Source of the DNA: Candidatus Omnitrophota bacterium
GTDB taxonomy: Bacteria > Omnitrophota > Gorgyraeia > Zapsychrales > Fredricksoniimonadaceae
Direction of reading: 5' to 3'
DNA length: 64,000 nucleotides
NCBI GenBank assembly: GCA_028870995.1
Contig: JAGWOI010000003.1
Coordinates: forward strand, 39,955-103,954
The position numbers were made by a program, and so were the translations under genes. The notes below the pieces were generated by a model, which saw only the letters and a program-made list of their open reading frames with translations, did no database searches and was not told the origin of the DNA. Positions 34,901 to 63,281 of this stretch are shown here, piece after piece. The stretch's first letter is position 1. Each line of letters opens with the position of its first letter.

Positions 34901-37900
34901 GCATAGATGAAAGCGATTTTAATAAAATCGCGCCTCTCCTGAAGGAATGGCGCGACGCCCAGAATGAAGCACAAGAATTTACCCATCGCCTGGGCATGCT
35001 GGCCAAATATAAAACAGAATTGTTCTTGCTCATGGTCAACCGCTTGACCAAGCCAGACTCCCTTGAACGCACAGAGCTTTTGAAAATGATCGATGATCCG
35101 ACCCATGTCCCTGAAGGCATCCTGGACTGGGAGATCTGGCCGCAGATACAGGAATGGGCCAACCTGCAGTTGCCAACGGGCTATGCCAATGCAGTGACCC
35201 AAAAACGTACCCTGATGCGTTTATATACGCATTATGCCAGAATATTCGGCGTAGCTAATCCCGAGGCCGCTGCTGAAGAGAAGATCCGTGTCATTGACCG
35301 CAATCTTATGGCCATGGATGCTTTGAATAAGGTGCTGATTCACGCCGTTGCCAAGACCACCTTTATTAAAGAATTCACGCAAGGGGAGCAGATTTTTAAT
35401 TGGTTGATGGGAAAAGGGTATTTTTATAATGAAGGCAAGAAACAAAATCCGCCCGTGCCTCCGGTTGATGGTCTTCCCAAACCATTGACAGCAGATTCTA
35501 AGAAAAAATTAAAGGAGCAATTCCCCGGGGACTATGAACGTATTGTTCCCATCCTGGAAGAAGCCGGCAGGGGCAGATTAAGAGAGATGCTGGATGTTTT
35601 GATTGAAACAGGGTATCAAGATACTTATAAAGTTTATCCGGATGGGACAAGCAGAGGTGTAAAGGATCCCTATAAGCTTATTAAGGACAATCAAGACAGG
35701 ATCATGGGGGGGATTGATAAAATTAGATACGATATCGATATGTTGACAAAGTTGATGGATTCCATCAAGTATGACCGGCTGTTCCCGGCCAGGTTAAAAG
35801 GCGGAGGGGTAGACACCGCCGATTTATTAACGGGAGAAAATTACCATGGCGCGAAATGGAACCAGAAAACAGCTATCCTGCCTTTCCTGGTGGGACCGGT
35901 TATCCTTAACCTTGATGCCGACCACCGTGCCAATTATGTGGATTACGAATCCCTTCCCAACCATTTGCTGGATTACAATTATTGGCCCGGCCTGGCTGTT
36001 TCAACGCCCATCGTCAAGCACACCTTGACCAAGGGCTTGGGTGTTTTCGGGAACATCCTGCCGGTCTCGGAGAATGCATTTTATTATCATGCCCAGCAGG
36101 CCAAGGAACTTTTCGGCGGCTTGACCGCGACGGGAAAGCTCTTCGAAAGGGTCTCAGCCCTCCGGCATTCCGAGGGAGTTACGGATTCTTATGTCGCCGA
36201 GGATGCGTTGTCGGCAATCAATTACCGGCGGTTCGGTTATGTCACCGGCCGCGCAGGCGCAGTAAAGGTGGAAAAGGGCTGGCCGTTCTCTTTCGCCGCG
36301 GCATCAACCCCGACGAGGAAGTGGTCTTATGACTCGGTGGAATCCGTCAGCGGCAGGACCGCCATGAAGGTGTACATGTCTCCGCTGGTTGACTGGCCAT
36401 TCCTGGTCAACAATTTCTGGCTGGACGGTTTTGGGTTTTATTTCAAGAAACCGGGGATCGTCCGCTATCTGCGCTGGCTGGTGGCGTTCTACCTGGTCAT
36501 GGATTGGAACCTTTTTTCCAACATTCCCCTCTCCATGTGGGTCGGCAGCATGATGCTTTCCCAGTCCATCAGCCAGGGCTTGTTTTTTTATAAGATATTC
36601 GACGAATCGCGGGGCTATGTAAAAGGCACGCTCAGCGCTTTGGGCAGCATTGCGGCCAGGATGTACAGTTATTTTGTGCATCAGGTCTTTGTTTTTGAGG
36701 AAACGGTGGGCAAACTTGCGCCCAACCGTTTGGGTAAATTCCTTTCAACGGCCTCCAAAGGGTCCAACCAGACCCGCATACAGAACAAGGACCTGATGTA
36801 TGTGCGCAGCAATTATGCCATCAAATCAGCCTCTGTTATGGCGGGGGTGACCTTGACCTTGATAGGTTTGTCCCTCAAAAAGTCCGGTTTATGGGCTCTT
36901 ACCCTGGGCATGGGTTTTGCCGGGGTGGCTGCACCGTTTTTGTTAAATCCGGTGCGGATCAGGAAACGTGTAAAAGATAATTTCAGCAATGGGAAGGATA
37001 TTGGAGGCGCTTTTGTCTGGGGCCTGACGGACAATGTGGAAATGCTGATGTATTATCTCAGCGGGTTATTGGCGCGCGTAGGGATAAAATCTTTTCGTTC
37101 AACAGAAGATGACCTGCAGATCAAGGTCTTAGACATGGTCCAGGCCAGAGTATCTCAGCCGTTGGACAAAATCCCTACCGGAAAATGGGGAACGACCTTT
37201 AAGGAAGCCTTTGGTCAGCAGGCCGAAGCCGCGGCTGAATTGGCCGAATACATATATTTATTCCATCAAAAGCCCAGCCATTATCGCAGCATGTATGGCC
37301 GTTCCGTCCTGCCTGCCGTTAACGGACTGTTAAAGATCCTGGCCAATAATCCCGGAAAAGAAGGAACGGATTATTCAAAGAAAATATTAGGGGATGAATT
37401 GGGGGCCTATAAGGAAGCCTTGGGGGTCCGCTTTAAGGAAGTTAAACAATATTTGGAGGTTTTTAAGCATGCCAAGGGGTATGAAAAAATGGTCAGAGAC
37501 GCCGAAAAACAGCTCGCTAAGGCGGATGAAATTTTAAAAAAGACTTCACCGTCAGCAAAGCAGCTGAACCGTGCCGATTGGTTGTTGACCCAGCTTTCCT
37601 GGATCCCGATGCGTATTCAGCGTCAACCTGGAACAATATCAAAACTGAGAGACCAATTTTTAAACACCATGATCGGCGTTGATGCCGTCTCTCAATTAGT
37701 GGCTTTTGCTTGGCTGCCTCTGCGATTATTCTTGGACAGGATAACAAGGACCCCTAAAACTGTTGAGAATGAAAAGAAGGCCTTGGAAATACCGAAATCC
37801 ACCGTTGTTCCTTTGGCGCCCAAAGCCGCGGAAGATAAGGCCATGGCAAGTTCTCCCAAACCCGCAGGAGTCAATAGGATTGCCAAGATTACCAATCCCG

Positions 37901-38085
37901 GCGGTATTGACCTTTCCAAAACAAGGGTCAAAGTCAGTGCCAGGAGTACACCCATTAAAATCAGCTACGATGATCCCGCTTTATTGCGTTTGTTGTTGAA
38001 TGCCGATGGGCTTGCCCCTATAATTTATAGCGTAAGAACAATGACCCCATCCATGGCTGATCATTTTGTAGGTTTGGACTATTGA
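22966..38085 (+). CDS. giant (5,039 aa) secreted / polytopic membrane protein of unknown function
   Basis: A single uninterrupted 15,120-nt ORF in the ORF track. It has an N-terminal signal peptide (MIKANKTPLVWLVILAFSVNTLITGPVFA). There are no internal stops, and none of the ORFs on the other frames or strand exceeds 173 aa. The amino-acid composition is ordinary along its whole length. Domain hints are given in the findings. An RBS-like AAGAAAG lies upstream. Confidence 0.7.
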   Translation: MIKANKTPLVWLVILAFSVNTLITGPVFADVPFLPAPGRLVPLTPSFSPPIILGLKVFKNNPFKFEFVMSEGDRAPGPDSVARRAFLKAEGDKLVKYFLASLTIPQKDMWVNLSPYEHDRIIAPEFGITEMGKQMLAQDYLLKQVTASVMYPNGAVGREFWGKIYREAYKRFGTTNIPVSTFNKVWILPDKAEVYENQVDNTAVIIKSSLKVMLEEDYLALRKSSLPGEVHKDSSADRQLSNELIRQIILPLIEKEVNTGKNFAGLRQVYNSLILAFWYKNKLKESLISKGYVNRKKIHGVEVKDKNIDEEIYRQYLKSYKKGVYNFIKEEVDPSTQETIPRKYFSGGIVWDNLGRQMSTVFGRDSAQAASLILKSAKTFELTVGLEEIQHASSGNPLYLDLNSITSSKPLFSAQDITRLNEAITDTRNFLEPEPVEDAAMLGTTTRRWAAALVGLALLAGANTVYAKGAYDPMPQQPAATNGLSATSAPSTAPSTAADLNHLLSNTVTNAVNPLQMPGPQALTNTTANANPTNQMSANDRDKFALDLRNDQNWTKLQDTLLSPDAPYFVIVNTSKTNTYSIIRSFDKWLGDGSGHDPQSYIDFVYGSGSSPDNQPNVTFKIRVPPPASQGKVDISTIDSWTQIVNPDQIKQIQLDRKTIYVQVFWKDKDGHAQSGVVYAGPKAALTVQHMMNDAQLDNDLTQKILKITSIPDYEEQINTILKTSGLPEAGTNDVSKEGGIIVGAYVQRDQFGSITSVTGWIHARDIDTQIVKGTDDKPHLVLYNNGKDPQILKYWPYGQDIDVFSVLTPAELNMLHDPQTADLALNKYLYNLGGSPLERGGIVFGKNKYIKKMMEVEAQKAIAEHDKQATKEYLHYLKVSEKADLLFSAASGGLSAVGINAPVNAVGDILVDMKYQPEKIGQYVPTAEELQQLFNEYNAQQPKEDQVVLKNGRFETVKGFYTQRDIELLDGWLVKRNKEKTAAFILQQVSRMAVIASYYTPTKTKSSGAYRFQVPENDALYHFLAQDVGSFLGEFNVAGLYNTVSSHGLQYVSLGNLLNKGSFLNKLTSVLGVTINGQSLINEITGRKVFELAPSKTRINFYVLGFPISHFFEEDLVANIDKILNDRDSYAFIVKDGHFRSVAVAFTKDQFQALYKSAVPIGKISNISPVDGRPMSVPVYEVETISPSGEHIHQTMVFTLKALEQAGLDVRRDLERYDNFTKMLNEGGAVFHYGSDGGTLSQNIYTGLFKSFSQQGMDDFPSAYTFDQAGADRFFIEMGNFQSAKWNLDFFFDVMKAQLKLSGQFQGLSKSYNAYNGADASDQPDIGGTSMMAQTIMAYEKSTGDKKYHLLLTESIKWLLKVQKENGGKALPDTPGGHLFNPEPNAIAFAALHNFGTIYNDKDALLAADQIRQWAAGLWDKENFLIKSPNGNYPADNNTRWLQALGPKAFMETFLDNDPVKLGKFLRAMEKTFGVTVINYHTGQTVHLLDLADQQKADGRLTNDQHTPNHRIGFPEVTAEFLQGLIDSRPYLTREDAAFADQLIAKYSGQLQAMTDRNGNLPQATDKGKDSGYNGLTILGNHSLASGVQYQFMVLGLDPLHLDGPRGNALGLKPDKIEIPPVLSFNTLNQGAVIKPGETNYLQMSRYFNQLIIDEHAHHNRNLIYHDPINNLHFVYINTADHIVDARLIPSPKEIQKQVVLAGEDAQMTALKSQALNGQGAFPHGGVIFQTPDGKRLGMLRGVEGQSDAVEDVLSAVGQLPVQEQSFINYKGFSNFMLHNYKVDGVHQDVMVTVVFPLHKSIVHDVKDDHNVITTSIYEGGRLRFIINDNTTTVMNYDDATGVESTTTSYHNFAGGREAMVKMLSDSSKPLAERQALFNGQHPSNKTTTVWAGYIDPTLSMDRVDPNEVWIIKRSTNLDTGHVTTQGYGLFTRPVWEADQFTVTENHFDQSGSFTHAEQFQNTGTLQTPQKGQELFEIKVLDPNEIKGLPQQFTEKQQQAHQSLVYKKDVIHGTESLMVMDNENYGRYTAKYTADQFTNPEGQTSKLSTVLIPEYRPDFMGGQVPYVTREYSGAGKLMKESLTISIDAVTQVTTVQEKNMRTGEVIEKNIEPLFGNSLTESKMDSLGRQEIVSNVYSNDYLHVSSTTVIGGTLAVETKGTYNQAAQQWTLEQTRWNYSRNAQQEKVPVKYETVRSVLSAGGHLIYEDTMFPQNVYEINGHTYTENDRRFIPEYDVNGNISRSTEGIIANGVFTPKEIMEYSDYGDFFAARQSFTKRIINGKEIIYSTSRLLTTPAEYQKSGKLRFEVTSKVYDKADDPATWIETTDRDGHLVEKSLQVYDGQNLVGEQVTSFSNFNVQNIPAQSTTFIRQGAANEVLSTSIDKTSLEEARLGLERTEITNQFNGLVRQELRDRRGRVIENDIEGVDPVTGRQEVQRKTVFYNFNEFDIAVDSVTKSLLEGTFTPYTTSKLLSDYNDILTNHSIRFHVHNDFLSSTANSVDWQEVKDYHGHVIELDKGHMNPNGQFEATRKITSTYQGIPGLIDVANSTRTVMVIDGKPGLLTDQSHLITAHGVTIDAHNINTIPAQDIFNGVHKVRYQGISYFTELEGMTSTDRDYQEIRNSLGNVEVTLFGTVDPQGHFNKNRSLYRVYGTTENNFSNFDIAKATVTTVGDKGHEEVVSYSNNTHITDDDRYLIYKTKKGLGAQGLVLTNDVFANLGAITAQVSGPEHQLDLTHLTETISQVKDSEGRVIFTFSGFPSLNINGFGTGNPVFVTVNQYQENRISQPVAAHSQTYFWKKAMGDYDPTDNFNQLKNYIHNNHPTVIASLDNLMFDKGVATYKTDDMREVGLRTVSMRLDGTMYRNSYQGSGVDGPALFNLYFDEHELPSYGMEIGPSGIEKPFSIYRPTLFNYGTNLVPYVLIDEFRSPEKGANNEFDFQNQKPHASILMHNGTIQLVRTGSAVRTTPFSSMFSLGDLERNGVFGKAVRLIHETDPEKIMDAGHQQAQSGTAQSYVSSSAKKITFEQETWGQKAAWLGQQAGFLLGSLGFMYAVVLAARIFGFSTSSLRSLRKKDINSASQQNFEDLGFTKEQSQIILDERFRNGAFLSHQDFKDRLGVKLSSAHKLSEKWLPKMIAKARFWLAMQEVSWANGEVPAEKRFNTQDSLRLAAAADDSVVDFMAELKGLYGLKPEQQASYESALRMFGKYLKAEQLRDIVNTPHFRSLVDHYSKQRAAEVILKLMFEKIRDNQDYKNAVRQRVDDIISSTGMGREFPDQIFALKDTFLKNIENARLLPEGLRFHDFDISTDLLAYSWDDLRKGPDMERQVRSDLVSIEKLFVFQVIFQRALFGLAGQGRAEEYLWAKYVWPSINKRQALNDPDILQKIKAFKQVFHALLLDEVNKRLEGNRDPKGKVLYFQNIVNEEVYNDAFRYLLGQKDPTLADAGWTLSDDVKKKTAPIREKLEKALADINEVIELPSEQRAEEVKTKAEKIKPLVLAYVGAVDQQIGMPVLKGRLSYWQLTVNPLLKILGNKKMRQRIFSKGGPYNQSAHDLVRRLNHYIIFGSVAVMFAGLTLNLFSVFPFMVPPSFIMAPWSPLLAGAAATVTSFVGSWLVKKRLISSLNKKLKNVNEEQNKGKNKEQQEKVIKSFGSKVKYLYLAQAGLVLGSLLLMPTLAPALTAWLGIAPQMLPVAPFIRFAIHLIPVMIFIDTWRLSFYAMNHLVSAMALQQYYATNNVYEINNKSRTDKITGRLMALFKDTAPALGTVYKTRGQERLASFVNVVDEMTSEKDNYFFAKNIDKQGKSSLTAKLSQLAGELVDAQGKPDADKIRDLQEEIETFVEKVAIPINVEGKTAAKSEKLGLQKLVDFVNHNYRLDKGANPSTWGHVIPTTVAIIGYSEDWYFTNGELLDINRGTFEESTIIGKFENSTTGHDVLDKLLKHGILLQEGLMSRKEEFKRKVRVNVDLSDKEIKQIALNAGIDESDFNKIAPLLKEWRDAQNEAQEFTHRLGMLAKYKTELFLLMVNRLTKPDSLERTELLKMIDDPTHVPEGILDWEIWPQIQEWANLQLPTGYANAVTQKRTLMRLYTHYARIFGVANPEAAAEEKIRVIDRNLMAMDALNKVLIHAVAKTTFIKEFTQGEQIFNWLMGKGYFYNEGKKQNPPVPPVDGLPKPLTADSKKKLKEQFPGDYERIVPILEEAGRGRLREMLDVLIETGYQDTYKVYPDGTSRGVKDPYKLIKDNQDRIMGGIDKIRYDIDMLTKLMDSIKYDRLFPARLKGGGVDTADLLTGENYHGAKWNQKTAILPFLVGPVILNLDADHRANYVDYESLPNHLLDYNYWPGLAVSTPIVKHTLTKGLGVFGNILPVSENAFYYHAQQAKELFGGLTATGKLFERVSALRHSEGVTDSYVAEDALSAINYRRFGYVTGRAGAVKVEKGWPFSFAAASTPTRKWSYDSVESVSGRTAMKVYMSPLVDWPFLVNNFWLDGFGFYFKKPGIVRYLRWLVAFYLVMDWNLFSNIPLSMWVGSMMLSQSISQGLFFYKIFDESRGYVKGTLSALGSIAARMYSYFVHQVFVFEETVGKLAPNRLGKFLSTASKGSNQTRIQNKDLMYVRSNYAIKSASVMAGVTLTLIGLSLKKSGLWALTLGMGFAGVAAPFLLNPVRIRKRVKDNFSNGKDIGGAFVWGLTDNVEMLMYYLSGLLARVGIKSFRSTEDDLQIKVLDMVQARVSQPLDKIPTGKWGTTFKEAFGQQAEAAAELAEYIYLFHQKPSHYRSMYGRSVLPAVNGLLKILANNPGKEGTDYSKKILGDELGAYKEALGVRFKEVKQYLEVFKHAKGYEKMVRDAEKQLAKADEILKKTSPSAKQLNRADWLLTQLSWIPMRIQRQPGTISKLRDQFLNTMIGVDAVSQLVAFAWLPLRLFLDRITRTPKTVENEKKALEIPKSTVVPLAPKAAEDKAMASSPKPAGVNRIAKITNPGGIDLSKTRVKVSARSTPIKISYDDPALLRLLLNADGLAPIIYSVRTMTPSMADHFVGLDY

Positions 38086-53351: not shown

Positions 53352-53436
<85 letters not shown>

Positions 53437-53458
53437 TTAATAGTTGAAAACAGCAATT

Positions 53459-54163
53459 ATGGGAAGACCCATTGAAGTATCGGCCAGTATCCTGGCTGCT
53501 GATTTTGCCAACCTGGAACGCGACATCAAGCGCTGCGAGGCCGCCGGAGTGGCACGTTTTCATATCGATTGCATGGACGGCCATTTTGTCCCCAACCTGA
53601 CCATCGGCCCCGTCATCGTGGAGGCCATTCGCAGGCATACCAAGCTTCCCCTCGAGGCCCATTTGATGATCGAGCATCCCGGGGATTATATCGGGCACTA
53701 TGCCAAGGCCGGAGCGGACATCATCCAACTCCAGGCGGAATGTTACGGCCGGCGCCGGGCTGCCTGCGGCCTATGGAACCAATGGCCCAAAGAAACCGAC
53801 CATGTGGATGCCGCCGCCCTGTGTGCGGATTTAAAGAAGATCCGGGGACTCGGGAAAAAAGCCTTCGTGGTTTTTAATCCCGGTACACCCCTGGCCGAGG
53901 ATGTGCTTGGCACGTGTGACGGCGTCCTTATCATGTCGGTCAATCCCGGGTTTGCCGGCCAGAAATTCATGCCCGAAGCCCTGCCTAAACTAAAACGCCT
54001 GAAGGAAATTTTTAAGGGCGATATTGCCATTGACGGAGGAGTCAATGCCCAAACCGCGCCATCTGCGGTGGGGGCGGGGGCCCGTGTCCTTATCACCGCC
54101 AGTTATCTTTTCGGCGCCCCGGATCTTTCAGCCGTGGTCGAGACCCTTAAATCCTTGGGTTGA
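53459..54163 (+). CDS. rpe: ribulose-phosphate 3-epimerase
   Basis: …SILAADFANLERDI…HIDCMDGHFVPNLTIGP…MSVNPGFAGQKF…. It contains a ~19-aa in-frame insertion relative to E. coli Rpe (see findings). The track start is a TTG 8 nt after the tRNA. The ATG at 53459 is preferred. Confidence 0.85.
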   Translation: MGRPIEVSASILAADFANLERDIKRCEAAGVARFHIDCMDGHFVPNLTIGPVIVEAIRRHTKLPLEAHLMIEHPGDYIGHYAKAGADIIQLQAECYGRRRAACGLWNQWPKETDHVDAAALCADLKKIRGLGKKAFVVFNPGTPLAEDVLGTCDGVLIMSVNPGFAGQKFMPEALPKLKRLKEIFKGDIAIDGGVNAQTAPSAVGAGARVLITASYLFGAPDLSAVVETLKSLG

Positions 54164-54235
54164 TTTTGCTCTTCCCGTTTTTATATGTTATATTTGTATT
54201 ATCTCGCGCTTTAGAAAACCTGTCTCAAGGAGAGT

Positions 54236-55999
54236 ATGAGGATATCTGTCAATCATAGCTCTTTCAGAGGCCAGACCTCCATAGAATACCTTTTGCTTTT
54301 GGCGGTGGTGGCGGTGGTCGTGATAACCGCTTTCAGCCGCGGGGGCTTGATCGACAAGGTGCGCAACACGGCAGGGGATTATTATAATACCGTCACCCGC
54401 GTTATCATGGATAGTGACGACGGCACCCGGACCCTTCCCAACGGTAAGACAGCTTCCGTAGATACGCCCAATCCCATCGACGGCGGCTGGTGCCCGGTCG
54501 TTTGTCCGACCGGCAGCGGCCCTACTACCATTTACGGCGCCTGTGAATGCCCGGCGCCTGCCTTCGGCGGGCAAGGCTGTCCCAGCCTCACGGTTTCCTG
54601 TCTGGAGGGCAAGGAGACGGCCGGCCCCAATACGGGAGGGGCTTGCAAAGGCCAGGTCATATACTGCGGCGGGACGACAAGCTGCGGTCCTTGTCCGGCT
54701 GGTCAATCTTGCGGCGCGCCGCCTCCGGTGGTTACGAATACACCAGGATGCGGCTGTGCCGATGGCCTGACCTGTGATCCCAATCAACGTTGTACCCCGG
54801 GCCTTTACGGGTGCCCGGACAGCTGCACTCCCAGTTGCACCAGGCAAACCTGTCCTCAATGCTATCCTCCGACCGGCTCCATTCCAGATGCGCAGTGCAG
54901 CAGCTGTGAATGCCCGTCGGGCTCATTTTACGATCAAGCCAGCAACAGCTGTCTCAGTTATTGCCCGAAACCGCCAGGGGCTGTTTCTTCATGTAATACT
55001 TGGAACGGGACATCCTGCGTGCCGGTCAACTGCGGCACCAATCAATATTGCGATACGTCCAAACCTCCCGCCTGTCAATGCCAGTGTGATCAGTATTCCT
55101 ATTGGAATGGTTATGCCTGTGTTTATTGCACTGCAGATACTCAGGGCCATTGTACCCTGCCTGTGTCGACGGGCGGCAGCGGCCCATGTAATACAGGGGC
55201 GACGACGACGTGCCAGTCGATCACTTGCCCGAATAATATGTATTGCAACACAGCGCAGAATGCCTGCCAGTGTATCGCTGGGACTTCCTGGAACGGCACG
55301 GCCTGCGTTACGACCAAGATCAATGGGGCCTGTGGAACAACAGAGGGTTCTTGTACGGCAGGCACCGCCGGGAGCATTACTACGACCAATTCTACCTATA
55401 CGTGGACCTGTCAAGGCAGTGGCGGCGGCTCCAACGCCTCTTGCTGCGCGCCTGTTGTGGCCTGTCCTACGTCTGGGACCATTTGCGGCAAAGATGCGTG
55501 CGGCAATACCTGCCCCGGCGCAACCACATGTGGGGCAGGATATCAATGCAGCAATAATATTTGCCAGGATTGCTGCACGGGATTCTGTGGGGGAACCAGA
55601 TGCGGCAAAACTTGCCCTAATACCTGTGGATATACCAATGGGACGGGGACGCAAGACGAGTGCTGTTCGACGAGTACGCCGCCATACACGCGGTGCCTGG
55701 GAGCAGAAACGATTACGACATATCCCAAGCCTTCCGCCTGCAAGAGTGTGCAAATTCCCAATACATCACCGACGTCGAATTATTACTATACCTGTGCTCT
55801 AAAAGTAACCGGCGGCTGGGTAACGCCTTCATGCAGTAATTATAATGGCGCCAGTTGCAAGAAAAATACCGGCGGGGCGGCCTGGCCGGGTGTCTGCTTC
55901 TCCAATAATAGTTCTACGACCAGCGCCGTGTCGATGTATTATAACAAGGCCGTCACCATCGAGTGCTCCCAGGTTTACATCCCCGGCGGGGGCGCGTAA
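54236..55999 (+). CDS. Cys-rich secreted protein with a Flp/TadE-type (class III) prepilin N-terminus
   Basis: N-terminus MRISVNHSSFRG↓QTSIEYLLLLAVVAVVVITAF carries the G/xxxxEY prepilin-peptidase motif plus a hydrophobic helix. The remaining ~550 aa are about 12% Cys with repeated C-x-C motifs and two copies of the module C..N.YC[DN]T....ACQC......WNG.AC. An AAGGAGAG RBS is present. The long overlapping ORFs on other frames and the opposite strand are Arg/Ala/Pro-rich shadows. Confidence 0.6.
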   Translation: MRISVNHSSFRGQTSIEYLLLLAVVAVVVITAFSRGGLIDKVRNTAGDYYNTVTRVIMDSDDGTRTLPNGKTASVDTPNPIDGGWCPVVCPTGSGPTTIYGACECPAPAFGGQGCPSLTVSCLEGKETAGPNTGGACKGQVIYCGGTTSCGPCPAGQSCGAPPPVVTNTPGCGCADGLTCDPNQRCTPGLYGCPDSCTPSCTRQTCPQCYPPTGSIPDAQCSSCECPSGSFYDQASNSCLSYCPKPPGAVSSCNTWNGTSCVPVNCGTNQYCDTSKPPACQCQCDQYSYWNGYACVYCTADTQGHCTLPVSTGGSGPCNTGATTTCQSITCPNNMYCNTAQNACQCIAGTSWNGTACVTTKINGACGTTEGSCTAGTAGSITTTNSTYTWTCQGSGGGSNASCCAPVVACPTSGTICGKDACGNTCPGATTCGAGYQCSNNICQDCCTGFCGGTRCGKTCPNTCGYTNGTGTQDECCSTSTPPYTRCLGAETITTYPKPSACKSVQIPNTSPTSNYYYTCALKVTGGWVTPSCSNYNGASCKKNTGGAAWPGVCFSNNSSTTSAVSMYYNKAVTIECSQVYIPGGGA

Positions 56000-56003
56000 C
56001 TTT

Positions 56004-56933
56004 CTAACCTTTTCTCTGATCCCTCTGAAAATTACTTTTGCCCATGGACTTGGCGAATTTTTTTAACTCCGCGCCGATTTCGCCGATCTGGGCCACATGG
56101 GTGATTCTTTGGTTGGCATTGCTGACAATACCGATGGAGACTGAGACCAAGCCTGCCTTGATGGGGTTGCCCTGGCGGTCAACACCGCTTATAAAACCAG
56201 CCTGCCGGTCATCGTCTTTATAAAAGCTGGGAGATAGTTTATCAAAGGCGTCGATGACGGACTGGCTGACCCGGTCGGCTTTGTCATCGTCGCAGATAAA
56301 GACAAAGTCGTCCCCGCCGATATGCCCCACAAAAGCTTCCGCGCCGCAGAATTGCTGGCTGGCCTCAACCAGGATACGGGCTAGGGCCCGGATGACCTCA
56401 TCGCCGTGTTCAAACCCGTACTTGTCGTTGTAGACCTTGAATTTGTCGAGGTCCACATAGCCGACCGCAAAGGGTTTGTCGCTGTCGATACGGCCCTGAA
56501 GCTCGTCCATGATGGAGGTATTGCCGGGCAGGTGCGAGAGGGGATTGGCGTCCAGCGATCGGCTGGTGCGCTTGAGGATCATCTTGATGCGCGCCACCAG
56601 GGTCTCGGGCTCGAAAGGTTTGACCAAGTAATCGTCGGCGCCGGATTCTATGCCGGTGACCATGTCCCTGGTCTCTCCCTTGCCGGTCAGCATGATGACC
56701 GGCAGATGGCGCAGCAAGATGTCCCGCCGCAGCTGCCGGCAGAATTCCGCGCCGTTCATGACCGGCATGTTATAGTCGGTGATGATCAGGTCCGGGTTTT
56801 TGGCCTTGACCATTTCCAGCCCTTCCTTGCCGTTGCTGGCAGCCAGGACGGTATAATGTTCCGACAGGCTCAAGTCCAGGACATCACGGATGTCCGGGTC
56901 GTCATCGATGATCAGTATCCGTTCACGCCGCAT
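56004..56933 (-). CDS. response regulator with GGDEF output (diguanylate cyclase, PleD-like)
   Basis: Receiver (ILIIDDDPDIRDVL…LITDYNMPVMNGAEF…LTGKGETRD) followed by GGDEF (…YVDLDKFKVYNDKYGFEHGDEVI…GHIGGDDFVFI). Confidence 0.85.
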   Translation of the reverse strand: MRRERILIIDDDPDIRDVLDLSLSEHYTVLAASNGKEGLEMVKAKNPDLIITDYNMPVMNGAEFCRQLRRDILLRHLPVIMLTGKGETRDMVTGIESGADDYLVKPFEPETLVARIKMILKRTSRSLDANPLSHLPGNTSIMDELQGRIDSDKPFAVGYVDLDKFKVYNDKYGFEHGDEVIRALARILVEASQQFCGAEAFVGHIGGDDFVFICDDDKADRVSQSVIDAFDKLSPSFYKDDDRQAGFISGVDRQGNPIKAGLVSVSIGIVSNANQRITHVAQIGEIGAELKKFAKSMGKSNFQRDQRKG

Positions 56934-58461
56934 AATTTTTCTCTAGGTTGATGCGTTCCTCGAATGCCTTTTGGGAAGCAGGCAGGGTGAAATAAAAAAT
57001 GGTCCCCGTGCCTACCGTGCTCTCCACCCATATTTTACCATGATGGGCCGCCACAATGTTCTTAGCCAGGACCAATCCCAAGCCGGTGCCTTTAACGTTC
57101 TGGTTGATCTCGTTGTCCACCCGGAAGAATTCGTTGAACAATTTCTGGATCTCCGCCGCCGGGATGCCGATGCCCGTGTCGGACACGCTTAAAACCGCGA
57201 ACCCTTCATCGAGAGCAGGGGAAACCCCGATGGTGACAGTGCCCTGCGCGGGGGTAAATTTAATGGCATTGCCTAAGAGATTGATGAAGACGCGTTCCAC
57301 CTGGGAGGCGTCCACGTAGATGTTTTCAACCTCAGTGCAGAGGCGCTGCTGTAATTTGATGCCCTTGGCCGTCATTTGGGGCGCTAAAAGATCGGCCACA
57401 TTGTCCACCATGCTCTTGATTTTGTACAGTGCAAACTTCATTTCCTGGCGGTTGGACTCGATGCGGGCGATGTCCAGCAGATTATTGATGAGACTCACCA
57501 GGTTGTCCGAATGGGTGTTGATTTTGGACAGGCGTTCCTTGACGGCAGCAGGCACATCCCCGATCTTGCCGGCGATCAGGATGGAGGCATAGCCTTTGAT
57601 GGAGGTCAGGGGCGTGCGCAGTTCATGCGAGACGGCGGAGATGAACTCCGATTTCTTTCGGCTGATCTCATTGACCTTTTGCAGCGCCGTGGCCAGCTGT
57701 TTGGTGCGTTCGGCCACCTTAAGTTCCAGATGCTGGCTGGAAAGGAACACCTTTTCGAACAGCCGGGCATTCTCGATGGACTGGCCGATCTGGCCGGCCA
57801 GGATGGTGATCAGTTCCTCGTCGCCCTGGGTCATGGCCGGCGCGTTGAACCCGTAGCCGGCAAAGACGAAGCCGATGGCCCCGGTTTGGGCGGTGACAGG
57901 GGCCAGGATAAAGTGGTCGGATTCGAAGATCTGGATGATGCGTTCCCTGGTTTTGGTGGGGCAATTATTGAGGGATAGGGCAGCGGTCAGTCCTTTAAGG
58001 GTCTCTTCGCTTTCGAATTCTTTCAGGATAGCGTCGGCCCGACTGTCCTTGTAACCGATGTTAAGGCGTACTTTAAGCAAGTTGTTATCATTGATGCAGG
58101 CAATGAGGATGCGGGAAAACCCCAGGTCTCCAAAAAGTGAGGGCGAAATTTTTTGGAAGATTTCGCTTTCATTGAGCGCCTGGCTCATTTGCCGGGATGT
58201 CCGCTGGAGGGCATTGAGGCCGTTGAGGCGCTTGTCCATTTCCTCGCGGGTTTTATGCAGCTCCAGGTCCGTGCGGACAATGAGCTTGGCCTGCTCATCC
58301 AATTCGTTGAAAGAACTCAGCAGTTTGTCCTGTTGGGCTTTCATACGGGCGATAGTTTCTTCCCGGGAGACGAAGGAATAAACAAGATAGACGATGATGC
58401 AGATCAGGATAAAAATAAAAACAACGAGCGCATGGAGCATGAGGGGAGGCGTCACATCCAT
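56923..58461 (-). CDS. membrane-anchored GAF sensor histidine kinase
   Basis: One N-terminal TM, a coiled coil, a GAF-like module, HisKA (FISAVSHELRTPLTSIKGY) and HATPase_c (…GTGLGLVLAKNIVAAHHGKIWVEST). Confidence 0.85.
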   Translation of the reverse strand: MDVTPPLMLHALVVFIFILICIIVYLVYSFVSREETIARMKAQQDKLLSSFNELDEQAKLIVRTDLELHKTREEMDKRLNGLNALQRTSRQMSQALNESEIFQKISPSLFGDLGFSRILIACINDNNLLKVRLNIGYKDSRADAILKEFESEETLKGLTAALSLNNCPTKTRERIIQIFESDHFILAPVTAQTGAIGFVFAGYGFNAPAMTQGDEELITILAGQIGQSIENARLFEKVFLSSQHLELKVAERTKQLATALQKVNEISRKKSEFISAVSHELRTPLTSIKGYASILIAGKIGDVPAAVKERLSKINTHSDNLVSLINNLLDIARIESNRQEMKFALYKIKSMVDNVADLLAPQMTAKGIKLQQRLCTEVENIYVDASQVERVFINLLGNAIKFTPAQGTVTIGVSPALDEGFAVLSVSDTGIGIPAAEIQKLFNEFFRVDNEINQNVKGTGLGLVLAKNIVAAHHGKIWVESTVGTGTIFYFTLPASQKAFEERINLEKNYAA

Positions 58462-58464
58462 ATT

Positions 58465-59652
58465 TTATGAAATGGCCATGATGAGAATGCTCTCATTGTG
58501 CAAATGGGTGCTCTTTATATCATTAATGCCCAGGGGACCGATCTCCCCGTAGGAACACATGCCTATCAGGGGGACGGTGTGGCCTATAACGTCCCGGATC
58601 ATTTGGGTCTCCCTGAAGGCGTCCCGCCCCAGCAATTTATGACGGGCCAGCGATTCGATGACCATGATCAGGTGGGGCGGCCTTTGTTCCAAGGAAGCCT
58701 TGACTGTCTGGGCCGCTTGCACGGCCGAATCAAGGCAGGAATCCACATTACTGATCATCAAATGCACCTGCGCGCCTTGAGGGATGCCTTCATGACATAC
58801 GATACTACCGTCCGTAAGGATGTCAATGGGGTTGCGCAACAAATATTGGCGCGGCTCTTCCAGGAGAATGCCCAAGGGATAGAGCGCCGCGTAAGAATTC
58901 AGCGGCGAGCTTTTCATGCCATCCGCTTCCGTCCCCAAGAAATGCCGGTAGATATCGACGGCGGGTTTATCGTCAATGCTGCGGATGATGTGGCCTTCCA
59001 CCTGGGTGATGGTGCGCGGTTTACCCAGCGGCTTAAAACCGTGCCTGCAGCCGACGCCGACCTTCAACGGCCCGCCCAGCATGAGGCCGACGGCCCCGTT
59101 ATATAGGATCTGGTCCTGGAAAAATTGAGAGATGTTTTTGTAGGCAAAGGCATCACTGGCAAGGGCGCCAATGATGGGAAAACCGGCGCCCACCGATTCC
59201 CGGGCGCCCCGGATGAATTGTGAGAAGTCCCGTTCGATACCTTGAGAAAATGTGATGAAAACCTCACGCTGGTGGAACTCATAGAGGTTTTGGGCCGCCC
59301 GGTAGGCGAGGTCGACGCCGGTCAAGTAGGTGTCCCGTTTATCGGCACTGGTGACGGCTGAAATTCCGCAGCTCATGTCCGTGGAATTAAGTCCCATCAT
59401 GACGATCCCGCGGTTGACCATGCCGTTGGCCAGGATGATGCCGCCGGTGGAACAGCCCACCAGGTGCTTCGGCCGCAGCGTGCGGGTGATGGTGGTTGGC
59501 ATATCGCCCGTGACACAGTCGGGGGAGGCGAAAACAACGACCAGATCGGTGTTCGTTGTGTTGAGCTGGTTTTTGAGCTGTACGCAGGCCTGCAGGACGG
59601 CTTTTTGCGGATCAGGATGCTGACTGAAGCCGATGCTGATACTGGTCGACAA
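58465..59652 (-). CDS. FIST-domain sensory protein
   Basis: 395 aa with the FIST_N pattern (…LVVVFASPD…GCSTGGII) and a FIST_C region. It is the first gene of a FIST-HK-REC/GGDEF operon. Confidence 0.7.
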   Translation of the reverse strand: MSTSISIGFSQHPDPQKAVLQACVQLKNQLNTTNTDLVVVFASPDCVTGDMPTTITRTLRPKHLVGCSTGGIILANGMVNRGIVMMGLNSTDMSCGISAVTSADKRDTYLTGVDLAYRAAQNLYEFHQREVFITFSQGIERDFSQFIRGARESVGAGFPIIGALASDAFAYKNISQFFQDQILYNGAVGLMLGGPLKVGVGCRHGFKPLGKPRTITQVEGHIIRSIDDKPAVDIYRHFLGTEADGMKSSPLNSYAALYPLGILLEEPRQYLLRNPIDILTDGSIVCHEGIPQGAQVHLMISNVDSCLDSAVQAAQTVKASLEQRPPHLIMVIESLARHKLLGRDAFRETQMIRDVIGHTVPLIGMCSYGEIGPLGINDIKSTHLHNESILIMAIS

Positions 59653-59842: not shown

Positions 59843-59920
59843 GGCCCCATCGTCTAGCCTGGTCCAGGACGTCTGCTTCTCAGGCAGAAAACACCGGTTC
59901 AAATCCGGTTGGGGCTACCA
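59843..59920 (+). tRNA. tRNA-Glu (anticodon CUC)
   Basis: Hand-folded. Acceptor GGCCCCA/TGGGGCT (G·U at 1-72), D-arm GTCT…AGGAC, anticodon stem TCTGC/GCAGA with loop TTCTCAG, T-arm ACCGG-TTCAAAT-CCGGT, discriminator A and CCA. Confidence 0.8.
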
Positions 59921-60227: not shown

Positions 60228-63200
60228 ATGTTAAAACTTCTATTTTTCCTAGTGATGTCATTTGGTGTAAGTTCGGCAGCTTTTGCCACGAATTATTATA
60301 TCGATTGCCAAGGGAATGATTCCAACAACGGTTTAAGTGCTACGACCGCTTGGGCTAGTTTCAAGCCGACGGAATCGACTAATTTTTTGAAACCTGGCGA
60401 TGTGGTCAACGTTAAGGCAGGCTGCACTTTCACCGGAAGCGCTTCGGAGGCTTTCATTTATTCTGCCGGGACCGCCGCCAATCCTATTACGATCCAACCC
60501 TATGGGACGGGTGCCAATCCGGTATTTGACGCCACCGTCGATCCTTCCACGGTGCCGGGCTGGTCGGGCTGGACCGTATCCGATTCGACCAATGGCGTTT
60601 ATGTTTCCAATGTGCCTGTGCCGTGGTCGGTAAATTCCATCATCGTAGACGGAACGTATAGTTTAAGGAAATTAGATAGCTATCAATGTTCGCAGGGGGT
60701 CATAAGCAAGGAGCCCTACAGTGAATGCCAAAATGGCGCCGGCTCGCAGATTTATATTCATTTGGCCCAGGAGGCGAATCCATCAGGGCATAAGATAGCC
60801 TTCAGTAAATACGGCAATGGCGATGGGGATGGGCATACCCGCGGTCAATTCGGCGTGCACGACTCCACGGAACAATATGTTAACATCAACAATATCAGCA
60901 TTGTCGGATCGAATTCCCAGGGCTTCTCTTCCGGCGCGCCCTATGTTAATTTTAACGGTGTCAGCAGCTTGGGAGCGGCACGGGAAGGGATCTACATTAT
61001 ATCCCATGCCGTTCAGAATGGCACAGGGGCCGCCTATAATACGATCAACCAATCCACTTTTTCATGGTCTAACTCCAATTTCGGACAGCAGGTGACCATA
61101 GAGTCGCCCCATGTGGATCTGGTCGATGTGATCTCTAAGAATGGCTGGATGGCCGGCATCGATTGGCTGGATTATACCTCGGATACGAACGCCTCTTTTG
61201 GCCGGTGTATCCGTTGCATAGCGCATGACAATGGCCAGAGAAGCTGGTCTTCGGATTATAACGGCTATGATCCCGTGGGTATTTATGTTGACGGGGGGCA
61301 TGACATTCAAATCATCGATTCAGTAGTTTACCAGAGCCCCTTGCCGGCGGGCATCACCAGCCAGAACGCGATTTATGGGATCGCCTTCCAAACGGAACAT
61401 CCCAGCATAAAACCTGAATCCAATAACTTTATCATCAATAGTTTGGTTTACGGCATCAATTACCAGGATGTGCTTTTGTCAGGGGCCATTAATTGCACCG
61501 GGACCGCGTGTAATGTCAATGACAACATGGGCATGATAGGCACGACCCTCATCCGGGGAGGCTATCAGTTAATGTCCATGAATTCGCTCATACCCAATAA
61601 AAGTCTGAAAGGCGTATTTTTATACAACAACGTTTATTATAACGGCAGCAACACTGTCGGGGCAGAGCCGCTTATTAACTCTTATAATGTAACTTCCGAT
61701 TACAATGTTTATTATACCTCTCCTTCGGGGCAGTACATTTGGGATCCCAGCATAACCCTGTCGGCATGGCAAGGGGCCTCGGGCCAGGATGCCCATTCGC
61801 AATATGCCAATCCCTTATTTGCTGGATCAGGGATCACCGGCGAAATCGACCAATCCTATCATTTATCATCGGTCGCAGCCGGCCAGAATGCCAATTCGCC
61901 CGCTATAGGCGCAGCCACCCATGCACAACCGGGAAGCGCTTATGTTTATTCAAGTATTGGGACGGTACGCACGGATAACGTGGTAGACAGTTCCTCCACA
62001 CCGGCGGCGGGGTATCACTATTTGGCCAAATATTCACTTCCAACGACTGGGACCGGCGGCGGAACGCCTCCCAGCGGCGGCACCACCCCTCCCACTCCCA
62101 CTGTCTATAGTTTAACCATCTCAACTTCCGGCAGCGGTTTTGGGATGATCTTTGATGCGACCAATCTCATCAACTGCGGCGTAAACCCCGGTGCGACACA
62201 ATGCAGCGCATCCATTAACGGCGGCACTGCTGTCAGTTTAACGGCAACACCGGCGAGCGGATCGTCTTTTAACGGCTGGACCATTACAGGCTCTCAGGCA
62301 GGGACCTGCACATCAACGACCAGCCCGTGCACATTGACGGTCACCGGAAATACTACGGTAACCGCTAATTTTGGGCCAACGACGACTACGAACACGGGGC
62401 TTTCCATAACCACACAACCGGCAAACCAAACCGTGACTGTGGGGCAGACAGCGGCCTTCAGCGTAGTTGCGTCCGGGGCCCAACCCTTGTACTACCAATG
62501 GCAAAAGGACGGGGTCAACATTACAGGGGCCAACAGCTCAACGTACACAACGCCTCCCACTACAGCAGCTGATGACTGGCGCACGTTTAAAGTTGTCATC
62601 AATAATGGTACGGGTGTTCTCATCAGCAACATGGCCACGTTAAGGGTCAATGCCGCCGCTGCCACGACTCCCCCAACCGGGGGTACGACTCCTCCCACCG
62701 GAGGCACTACAGGCGGCACAGGAGCGCCTTCCATCACCACACAACCGGCAGACCAAACCGTCGCTGTGGGACAAGCAGCGACCTTCAGCGTAGCTGCGTC
62801 CGGGGCCCAACCCTTGTACTACCAATGGCAAAAGGACGGGGTCAACATTACAGGAGCCAACAGTCCGACGTATACAACGGCACCCACCACAACCGCTGAT
62901 GACTGGCGCACGTTTAAAGTCGTCGTCAATAACAGCGCGGGTGTTGCCATCAGCAACCTGGCCACGTTAAGGGTCAATGCAGCTGCTGCCACTGGGGGCA
63001 CTACAGGCGGCACAGGAGCGCCCTCCATAACCACACAACCGGCGAACAAAACAGTGACGGCAGGGCAAACGGCGACCTTCAGCGTAGTGGCCACCGGCGG
63101 CCAACCCTTGTACTACCAATGGCAAAAGGACGGTGTCAATATTGCAGGGGCCAACAGCCCGACGTACACAACGCCGCCCACCACAACGGCGGATAATTGG

Positions 63201-63281
63201 CGCACATTCAAAGTTGTCGTCAGTAATACCAAGGGCGTCGCCATTAGCAATATGGTTGTATTGATGGTCAATCAAGGGTAA
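60228..63281 (+). CDS. secreted right-handed beta-helix (pectate-lyase-like) protein with three C-terminal Ig-like (I-set type) repeats
   Basis: Signal peptide MLKLLFFLVMSFGVSSAAFA. Then NYYIDCQGNDSNNGLSATTAWASFKPT…PGDVVNVKAGCTF, the typical start of parallel beta-helix proteins. G/T/P-rich linkers follow, then three ~85-aa repeats (ITTQPANQTVTVGQTAAFSVVASGAQPLYYQWQKDGVNITGANS.TYTT.PTT.AD.WRTFKVV…LRVN). RBS GAGGAGGA. Confidence 0.75.
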   Translation: MLKLLFFLVMSFGVSSAAFATNYYIDCQGNDSNNGLSATTAWASFKPTESTNFLKPGDVVNVKAGCTFTGSASEAFIYSAGTAANPITIQPYGTGANPVFDATVDPSTVPGWSGWTVSDSTNGVYVSNVPVPWSVNSIIVDGTYSLRKLDSYQCSQGVISKEPYSECQNGAGSQIYIHLAQEANPSGHKIAFSKYGNGDGDGHTRGQFGVHDSTEQYVNINNISIVGSNSQGFSSGAPYVNFNGVSSLGAAREGIYIISHAVQNGTGAAYNTINQSTFSWSNSNFGQQVTIESPHVDLVDVISKNGWMAGIDWLDYTSDTNASFGRCIRCIAHDNGQRSWSSDYNGYDPVGIYVDGGHDIQIIDSVVYQSPLPAGITSQNAIYGIAFQTEHPSIKPESNNFIINSLVYGINYQDVLLSGAINCTGTACNVNDNMGMIGTTLIRGGYQLMSMNSLIPNKSLKGVFLYNNVYYNGSNTVGAEPLINSYNVTSDYNVYYTSPSGQYIWDPSITLSAWQGASGQDAHSQYANPLFAGSGITGEIDQSYHLSSVAAGQNANSPAIGAATHAQPGSAYVYSSIGTVRTDNVVDSSSTPAAGYHYLAKYSLPTTGTGGGTPPSGGTTPPTPTVYSLTISTSGSGFGMIFDATNLINCGVNPGATQCSASINGGTAVSLTATPASGSSFNGWTITGSQAGTCTSTTSPCTLTVTGNTTVTANFGPTTTTNTGLSITTQPANQTVTVGQTAAFSVVASGAQPLYYQWQKDGVNITGANSSTYTTPPTTAADDWRTFKVVINNGTGVLISNMATLRVNAAAATTPPTGGTTPPTGGTTGGTGAPSITTQPADQTVAVGQAATFSVAASGAQPLYYQWQKDGVNITGANSPTYTTAPTTTADDWRTFKVVVNNSAGVAISNLATLRVNAAAATGGTTGGTGAPSITTQPANKTVTAGQTATFSVVATGGQPLYYQWQKDGVNIAGANSPTYTTPPTTTADNWRTFKVVVSNTKGVAISNMVVLMVNQG
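62400..63281 (+). repeat. three tandem near-identical ~300-bp coding repeats (Ig-like modules)
   Basis: For example 62461 agcgtagttgcgtccggggcccaacccttgtactaccaatggcaaaaggacggggtcaacattacagg, 62779 agcgtagctgcgtccggggcccaacccttgtactaccaatggcaaaaggacggggtcaacattacagg, 63079 agcgtagtggccaccggcggccaacccttgtactaccaatggcaaaaggacggtgtcaatattgcagg. The minus-strand ORFs 62313-63275 are shadows of the repeats. Confidence 0.75.

Follow-up and report, generated by a model that had tools for sequence, protein, structure and literature searches.

A gene on the forward strand of the window, a 64,000-nucleotide stretch of contig JAGWOI010000003.1 from a Candidatus Omnitrophota bacterium that was analysed as a whole, encodes a cysteine-rich protein whose best reading, to which we give a probability of roughly 0.6, is that of a modular Flp-type pilin (class III signal) bearing an array of disulfide-bonded adhesin modules. 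Direct support for this reading comes from the architecture of the protein, the homologies of its domains, its positional orthology to bare pilins of 60-90 amino acids (aa) and the fast divergence of its tail. By position the gene is orthologous to a short Flp-type pilin, to which one clade of the Omnitrophota has added, and keeps remodelling, an extracellular array of the disulfide type. The gene and its ribosome-binding site lie as follows.

54227..54232, forward strand: Shine-Dalgarno-like AAGGAG, 3 nucleotides (nt) 5' of the pilin ATG
54236..55999, forward strand: cysteine-rich pilin open reading frame (ORF), ATG start, 587 aa

The protein contains 69 cysteines (11.8% of its residues), all of them C-terminal to residue 85, and these form six CxC, five CxxC and three CC motifs. 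Residues 81-587 reach 13.6% Cys, compared with 1.35% on average and at most 2.51% in 25 other genes of the window. The protein is also rich in Thr (13.6%), Gly (12.6%), Ser (9.2%), Pro (8%) and Asn (6.1%), while aromatic residues are scarce (Tyr 4.6%, Trp 1.2%, Phe 1.0%). An earlier note on this DNA had counted about 70 cysteines (some 12%) in CxC, CxxC and CC patterns, and had described the tail as rich in Gly, Thr, Pro and Asn and lacking an aromatic-rich core; the counts given here agree, and its observation is confirmed, far beyond chance. It could be argued that the ORF is not a real gene, as several long ORFs overlap on both strands, one of which might be the true frame, or that it is an artefact of assembly. 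The frame is confirmed, however, by 34 protein homologues that share it, with the N-terminus and the Cys columns kept, and by a second assembly, GCA_028865175.1, that encodes the identical protein (KGK03_01805, entered as hypothetical in a metagenome-assembled genome (MAG) of Candidatus Omnitrophica), as the earlier note had judged in preferring this frame to the overlapping ORFs. In addition, the position of the gene is kept at 34 of 35 loci and its ribosome-binding site is good. A wrong reading frame was rejected on these grounds, and we regard its probability as negligible. A promoter and terminator scan found no consensus promoter on the forward strand upstream of the gene.

The N-terminal part of the protein comprises three segments.

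54236..54271, forward strand: leader peptide, aa 1-12 (MRISVNHSSFRG), its last residue the invariant Gly-1 (alignment, PF04021)
54272..54409, forward strand: pilin module, aa 13-58, starting with the hydrophobic alpha1-N segment QTSIEYLLLLAVVAVVVITAF (AlphaFold2, homologues)
54410..54475, forward strand: variable linker, aa 59-80 (DSDDGTRTLPNGKTASVDTPNP) (family alignment)

The N-terminus thus reads MRISVNHSSFRG followed directly by QTSIEYLLLLAVVAVVVITAF, with Gly at -1, Thr at +2, Glu at +5 and Tyr at +6 of a prepilin-peptidase cleavage site that is predicted between G12 and Q13. Type IV and Flp-type prepilins are recognized by a short hydrophilic leader that ends in Gly or Ala and by about 21 hydrophobic residues after it, with Glu at +5 and, in Tad pilins, Tyr at +6 and Thr or Ser at +2 (PMC8179133, PMC10710030); the work on the structure of the Caulobacter Tad pilus names Thr2, Glu5 and Tyr6 as the residues that Tad pilins conserve at their N-terminus (PMC10710030). 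By its sequence the motif appears to be of the Flp/PF04021 type, G↓QTSIEY, and not of the N-methylation type, G↓F/MxxxE. In an alignment of 32 homologues G12, Q13, E17 and Y18 are invariant, and the leader Gly stands at position 10-12 in most of the homologues. Residues 13-33, with a mean Kyte-Doolittle value of 2.04, are the sole hydrophobic segment of the protein; AlphaFold2 places helices at 15-32 and 38-57, and the second part of the module is an amphipathic helix that ends in YYNTVTRVIM. The module as a whole has the size of a complete mature Flp pilin and is on average 66% identical to its homologues, through YYNTVT.VIMG, whereas the linker has a gap fraction of 55% and an identity of 16%, and is missing or shorter in many homologues.

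Family searches are in accord with this assignment. PF04021 (Class III signal peptide; gathering score 23.7 bits) matches aa 11-30 with 26.0 bits, above the cutoff, when the first 118 aa are searched alone, and scores 23.3 bits, slightly under it, with the full-length protein. It matches 32 of 32 family N-termini, about half of the homologues carry it as a precomputed assignment, and in the Pfam scan it was the sole family reported for the protein beside a sub-threshold PF04964. An NCBIfam scan of the protein returned no family. When the N-terminal profile was compared with PDB, a weak match over the helix to the Flp type IVb pilins 8u2b and 8u1k was obtained. The class III/Flp-type signal proposed in the earlier note is therefore borne out by the invariant G12, Q13, E17 and Y18 and by PF04021 in every N-terminus. 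The TadE-type leader that it had also suggested did not survive, as PF07811 (TadE) was unmatched by the protein at E <= 10 and by the 32 N-termini at E <= 1; a TadE-like pseudopilin was rejected accordingly. The pilin gene is the only ORF of the window in which a class III motif was found.

An alternative explanation for the N-terminus is that it belongs to the ordinary Sec type, as a signal peptide or signal anchor, its likeness to a prepilin being accidental, a concern that had been voiced at the outset. Short N-terminal hydrophobic segments are common among exported proteins, and the full-length PF04021 score does fall slightly under its cutoff. It should be emphasized, however, that Gly-1, Gln+1, the charged Glu+5 and Tyr+6 are invariant in 32 homologues and are retained in distant bare pilins, that PF04021 is found in all 32 N-termini, that no AxA-type motif follows the hydrophobic stretch, and that source annotations call relatives Flp pilin or class III signal peptide protein. 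The N-terminus thus turned out to be of class III and not a generic Sec signal, and the plain Sec interpretation, which we consider very improbable, was rejected.

The second line of evidence is the position of the gene, which lies between the following conserved neighbours.

53444..54163, forward strand: rpe (ribulose-phosphate 3-epimerase), 5' of the pilin gene (synteny)
56004-56933, reverse strand: response regulator-GGDEF, convergent
56923-58461, reverse strand: histidine kinase, convergent
58465-59652, reverse strand: FIST sensor protein, convergent

In the window the stop codons of the pilin and response regulator-GGDEF genes are only 4 nt apart. The arrangement was compared across 35 loci, consisting of 30 from a scan of GTDB species representatives and the loci found earlier. 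By tblastn 34 of the 35 are syntenic, rpe and the pilin gene being followed by the convergent response regulator-GGDEF, histidine kinase and FIST genes, and two more loci that were looked up agree. The triad stands by the pilin gene in nearly every locus of sufficient length. The looked-up loci of long homologues share the more extended order carA-carB-purF-pyrG-rpe-pilin before the convergent triad; at locus L039 the genes upstream of rpe differ, and the block from rpe to FIST is kept. The adjacency of the triad may reflect a functional link between the pilin and cyclic di-GMP (c-di-GMP), or merely conserved gene order. By record title most of the 30 scanned loci are Omnitrophota MAGs, with a dozen TPA 'uncultured Planctomycetales' and one 'bacterium'. 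The records entitled 'uncultured Planctomycetales bacterium' (TPA binchicken/SRP; L008, L010, L012, L014, L018-L020, L023, L027, L030, L032, L033 and L035) probably carry placeholder taxonomy, their locus being the same as in Omnitrophota MAGs.

The ORF that fills this slot ranges from 65 aa, a bare Flp-like pilin, to 1366 aa. The long homologues (323-979 aa) have an N-terminal region of about 115 aa in common and tails that differ widely. Long versions are carried by complete Omnitrophota genomes, for example on contigs CAVYLG010000003.1 and CAZNDZ010000001.1. With the pilin module as the only query, about 90 short proteins (43-127 aa) were retrieved; Omnitrophota account for most of them, and their sources label some as Flp pilins or class III signal peptide proteins. 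Five of the six short pilins looked up occupy the same slot (P0179, 60 aa; P0202, 77 aa; P0195, 85 aa; P0231, 75 aa; P0239, 102 aa); near P0246, a divergent short class III protein, there are only a ParA/CbiA-like ATPase and glycosyltransferases. The family includes intermediate forms, namely the bare pilin, the pilin with a six-Cys mini-module (RCGDGxC...), the pilin with a single thrombospondin type-1 repeat (TSR) (about 104-122 aa), and the pilin with a TSR and a long Cys-rich array. The six-Cys module, G.PPRCGDGxC...E.C..C..DCG.C, ends short same-slot pilins of 78-98 aa (P0195, P0203, P0204, P0206, P0212, P0227, P0230 and P0237, including loci L006 and L036), and is unlike, and much smaller than, the array of TSR and EGF (epidermal growth factor) type.

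The pilin gene changes much faster than its neighbours, and its tail is hypervariable. At locus L007, for example, pyrG is 95% and the response regulator-GGDEF 87% identical to those of the window, while the N-terminus of the pilin is 65% and its tail about 30% identical, its length being 421 aa against 587 aa in the window. In genomes with a pyrG that is 88-90% identical the slot ORF varies from 251 to 1366 aa, and bare pilins are found in more distant genomes (pyrG about 74-75% identical).

The first module of the tail immediately follows the linker.

54476..54601, forward strand: degenerate thrombospondin type-1 repeat, aa 81-122: IDGGWCPVVCPTGSGPTTIYGACECPAPAFGGQGCPS (profile searches, hhalign)

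When a profile of the N-terminal 118 aa was compared with PDB, the TSRs of thrombospondin-1 were matched with E = 2e-3 to 6e-3, followed by those of UNC5 and ADAMTS13. The same profile identified, among 1.84 billion representative proteins, 353 at E <= 1e-3, and these fall into two classes. In the first the entire pilin and TSR module is N-terminal; the second consists of multi-repeat proteins, each matched 7-25 times by profile positions ~57-103, and all eight of those checked contain bona fide TSP_1 (PF00090) repeats. By hhalign the TSR-like module matches canonical TSRs with a probability of 97% (E 7.8e-11), the motif PI[ND]GGW...C.V.C...C.CP.PAFGG..C.G aligning with them. The PF00090 cutoff (21.6 bits) was not reached, however: the window protein is unmatched, and among 32 N-termini a single one is hit, with E = 0.26. 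The copy in the window is indeed degenerate, with one Trp (W85), no Trp ladder and no RxR Arg ladder (IYGAC stands in its place), while distant family members retain WC[ED]WS.C, the WxxWSxC motif, and R.C. AlphaFold2 modelled the N-terminal 118 aa with low confidence past the helices, the TSR fold included, and the full-length model is likewise low here. The only family member that is not syntenic (L028 9971-11044), a 357-aa paralogue that begins with the pilin module, has a degenerate TSR directly followed by a canonical one (NGGWGPWSACDPPCGPGHRTRTC), then CGD-type Cys units and, at the C-terminus, a domain poor in Cys.

The remainder of the tail can be divided into five parts.

54602..54961, forward strand: Cys-rich region, aa 123-242, about 22 Cys, their positions nearly invariant in the family
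54962..55126, forward strand: EGF-like repeat 1, aa 243-297 (hidden Markov model (HMM) envelope 252-297), predicted local distance difference test (pLDDT) 83-90
55157..55312, forward strand: EGF-like repeat 2, aa 308-359 (HMM envelope 317-359), pLDDT 85-92: CQSITCPNNMYCNTAQNACQCIAGTSWNGTAC
55313..55675, forward strand: further Cys-rich modules, aa 360-480, with an NGxCG...YTWTCxGxGGGxxAxC unit and two CGxDxCGxxC units (motif scan)
55676..55999, forward strand: C-terminal region, aa 481-587, Cys-poorer and lineage-specific, ending at the stop codon (comparison)

The two internal copies reported in the earlier note are real, although its coordinates were slightly off: one copy covers aa 252-297 (nt 54989-55126), the other aa 317-359 (nt 55184-55312), and aligned locally under BLOSUM62 they score 109. 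The repeat is conserved in the family, with 57 domain matches in 30 of 35 proteins. At the DNA level the likeness of the copies is weak (29 nt at 76%), which indicates that the duplication is old; since only short, weak DNA repeats are present within the gene, neither a recent duplication nor a cassette mechanism appears to be at work. The repeat unit contains seven invariant Cys, the last six of which have the spacing of EGF domains, and the six-Cys EGF pattern (of the C-x-C-x(n)-G-aromatic-x-G-x-x-C type) fits aa 326-357 of repeat 2. Among solved EGF domains, the profile of the repeat matched the first one of Plasmodium MSP1-19 (E=1e-4) and those of thrombomodulin (0.04) and factor VII (0.09), whereas none of the Pfam EGF families reached E <= 10 with the window protein. 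Foldseek returned weak matches to Pvs25/Pfs25 and to the cysteine-rich domains of TNFR. The full-length AlphaFold2 model is confident only for aa ~150-360, which form beta-hairpin modules; within this, aa ~150-240, with pLDDT 78-90, are partly confident, and the EGF-like repeats reach a pLDDT of about 80-92.

Further towards the C-terminus the family is less uniform. The units at aa 360-480 recur in homologues, P0016 and P0025 among them, although AlphaFold2 confidence is low in this region, while aa 481-587 show 12% identity and 56% gaps against homologues. A homologue search with aa 360-587 gave no matches, which were probably lost to composition filters. Five homologues (P0008, P0013, P0018, P0022 and P0024) have in common a C-terminal domain, ...TF.L.[IL].D[YF]A.C..CA..C....L.G.CG...Y.V.CNP, that the window protein is without. 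In P0031 (L015 3337-4947) the pilin and TSR are followed by a Cys-poor domain (3% Cys) of about 400 aa, with no Cys-rich repeats, and the slot therefore takes unrelated cargo as well.

The Cys-rich extension, which the earlier note had described by its Cys motifs, can be classified in part, as profile comparison recognizes in it a degenerate TSR and EGF-like repeats. This bears on the nature of the cysteines. A Cys content of 11.8% with CxC, CxxC and CC motifs could be that of a metallothionein-like metal-binding or redox-active protein in which the cysteines serve as ligands and not as disulfides, and a metal-binding role had indeed been suggested in the earlier note. Such a role is unlikely because TSR and EGF domains are disulfide-bonded extracellular folds, which the Cys patterns fit, and an export signal is present. 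In addition, the number of Cys is even in 27 of 35 family members, which is consistent with full disulfide pairing, AlphaFold2 gives beta-hairpin modules and not metal clusters, and no Pfam metal-binding family was matched. We thus rejected the metallothionein-like interpretation, its probability being very small in view of the folds, the export signal and the Pfam result.

For the modular Flp-type pilin we infer cleavage, assembly, disulfide bonding, an adhesive role and, if there is any, control by the FIST/kinase/GGDEF (c-di-GMP) module. An A24-family prepilin peptidase would remove the 12-residue leader after Gly12, leaving the helical pilin module of some 45 residues, with its Thr2, Glu5 and Tyr6, in the inner membrane, from which a Tad/type-IV-filament-like machine, whose genes would lie at another site in the genome, would extract it into a filament or a short pseudopilus-like stalk. 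The tail of about 530 residues, comprising the linker, the degenerate TSR, the EGF-like repeats and more Cys-rich units, would point outward, because the C-terminus of an Flp pilin lies on the filament surface (PMC10710030), and could there serve as a disulfide-stabilised adhesin. Given the bulk of the protein, a low-abundance or tip subunit is probable. Suitable machinery has been reported in the phylum: Omnitrophota carry Tad complexes and type IVa pili (PMC10066038), the Tad cassette occurs in complete genomes of the phylum (bioRxiv 10.64898/2026.06.07.730766), and a conserved locus resembling type II secretion and type IV pilus systems has been described, accompanied by numerous small genes of the class III signal type in the vicinity of giant genes (bioRxiv 10.1101/2023.11.21.568195). 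In Bdellovibrio, moreover, pilin-like tad genes can be remote from the tad locus (bioRxiv 10.64898/2026.07.08.737194).

Several observations count against this proposal. No gene for a prepilin peptidase, pilus ATPase, platform protein or secretin is present in the 64-kb window, and none of these was found in any of the syntenic loci of ~20 kb. The PF04964 (Flp_Fap) cutoff of 32.2 bits was not reached by the full-length protein (13.7 bits) or its N-terminus (16.7 bits), and in the family N-termini the matches are weak only (12 of 32). An appendage of 55 kDa per subunit would also be hard to pass through a secretin, which makes the role of a major subunit doubtful.

The main rival, which we consider unlikely but deserving of serious attention, is that the class III signal serves for export and anchoring only, the protein being processed and never polymerised, so that the Cys array would reside in the cell envelope or act as a fixed surface adhesin. 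Archaea possess sugar-binding surface proteins that carry class III signals without forming part of a filament. With slot ORFs of up to 1366 aa, the great size of the appendage is awkward for packing in a filament, and the pilin gene is never beside pilus assembly genes in the loci examined. In contrast with this anchor hypothesis is the observation that orthologues in the same slot are bare, Flp-sized pilins of 60-90 aa, whose only plausible role is that of a filament subunit. Furthermore, the pilin helix is 66% identical up to and including its surface-facing C-terminal half (YYNTVT.VIMG), and such high conservation suggests packing constraints beyond those of a simple membrane anchor.

In architecture the protein resembles the modular type IV pilins, such as PilB (vWA) and PilC (lectin) of Streptococcus sanguinis, in which a class III signal, a small N-terminal pilin module and a short linker precede one or more grafted extracellular modules (PMC8179133). 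These modules are thought to make filaments adhesive, and multi-domain modular pilins of up to 860 aa are on record (PMC8179133). The window protein has the same plan, its pilin module (aa 13-58) and linker (aa 59-80) being followed by Cys-rich modules of TSR-like, EGF-like and other kinds. The modular type IV pilins, however, were catalogued through the IPR012902 motif (type IVa/N-methylation) and have a globular pilin head, whereas the carrier here is a head-less helix of the Flp/PF04021 type, the cargo is TSR-like and EGF-like, and elsewhere the same slot holds a bare Flp pilin, of which this gene is the hypervariable orthologue by position. The earlier note had held that the architecture is not a described one; modular pilins are in fact known for the IPR012902 type (PMC8179133), but in the literature we found no description of an Flp-type modular pilin family of this kind. 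The concept of a modular pilin is thus an established one, and what sets this family apart is the Flp-type carrier and its hypervariability at a locus that the phylum conserves.

Similarly, the Flp major pilins of Tad (type IVc) pili, represented by Caulobacter PilA (8u1k/8u2b; PMC10710030), have a short leader ending in Gly, the Thr2/Glu5/Tyr6 residues and a helical subunit of about 45 residues that lacks a globular head and has its C-terminus at the filament surface, and other Omnitrophota orthologues are of this size. The window pilin differs in fitting PF04021 better than PF04964, in its ~530 extra residues and in being encoded outside a tad operon. The minor pilin-like proteins TadG, TadE and TadF also have a prepilin-like N-terminus on a larger protein, and for TadG a position at the pilus tip has been described, with a gene that need not lie at the tad locus (bioRxiv 10.64898/2026.07.08.737194). 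In contrast with these, the window protein has no PF07811 match, shows no similarity that we could find to TadG-type domains, and carries the Flp-like Q-T-S-I-E-Y motif. The small class III signal genes of Omnitrophota (10.1101/2023.11.21.568195) share the phylum and the type of N-terminal signal, and point to machinery in the phylum that can handle such proteins; those genes, however, are small and lie beside the secretion locus, whereas the gene in the window is long and Cys-rich and occupies a different conserved slot (rpe/FIST-HK-GGDEF, HK being the histidine kinase). With eukaryotic adhesion proteins built from TSR (PF00090) and EGF domains (thrombospondin-1, UNC5, ADAMTS13; Plasmodium MSP1-19, Pfs25) the protein shares tandem small modules of the disulfide type on an exported protein and, with EGF domains, the six-Cys spacing and the C.C..G..WNG..C signature. 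Its TSR, however, has one Trp and no Trp/Arg ladder and is under the Pfam cutoff, and its context is bacterial and pilin-anchored.

Among known filament subunits those of the Flp/Tad type are the smallest, and the pili built from them had been regarded as bare helices. If the modular Flp-type pilin is assembled as proposed, the strategy of grafting modules onto a pilin reaches these subunits too, and a single gene, varying from a bare 65 aa to a Cys-rich array of 1366 aa, would provide a natural series for how much cargo a filament tolerates. Omnitrophota are uncultured and ultra-small, and are largely inferred to be host-dependent or predatory. In this setting a hypervariable exported TSR/EGF-like protein whose locus is conserved offers a concrete candidate determinant of attachment and host range; the gene could be followed in metagenomes or serve as a handle for labelling or enrichment. 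The protein also adds a well-supported bacterial case of TSR-like and EGF-like modules. A wider proposal, which we offer tentatively, is that Omnitrophota keep a dedicated Flp-type pilin in a phylum-wide slot by the FIST/HK/GGDEF genes, and that in one clade this pilin may have become a carrier that accretes eukaryote-like TSR/EGF modules (65 to >1300 aa among genomes whose pyrG is 74-95% identical to that of the window), the result being a pilus-displayed, hypervariable array, coupled to c-di-GMP, with which the cell might select or grip partner or prey cells. Were this correct, no modular pilin family of the Flp/Tad type would precede it, and the array would be a bacterial counterpart of the TSR/EGF adhesins that apicomplexan parasites possess.

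The rest of the window consists of housekeeping and nitrogen-assimilation genes, a giant ORF and an Ig-domain protein. The nitrogen cluster (2151-22211) comprises a GAF-GAF-ANTAR regulator, an ammonium transporter, a type III glutamine synthetase, a GATase, an NAD synthase and the large and small GOGAT subunits, and is interleaved with glycosyltransferases of the GT2 and PMT_2 types that could glycosylate surface proteins. The giant ORF (22966-38085, forward strand; 5039 aa) has an N-terminal signal-like hydrophobic segment, and neither of its halves has a Pfam match; very long ORFs are known in Omnitrophota. Upstream of it are gltB/gltD and a TPR lipoprotein, and not a secretion locus. A tRNA-Leu(GAG) gene at 53352-53436 lies between pyrG and rpe, directly 5' of the pilin block, and a tRNA-Glu(CTC) gene at 59843-59920 comes after the FIST gene. 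Beyond the latter, 60228-63281 on the forward strand encodes a secreted protein of 1017 aa with Ig_3/I-set and InlB B-repeat-like domains, which is a candidate surface protein.

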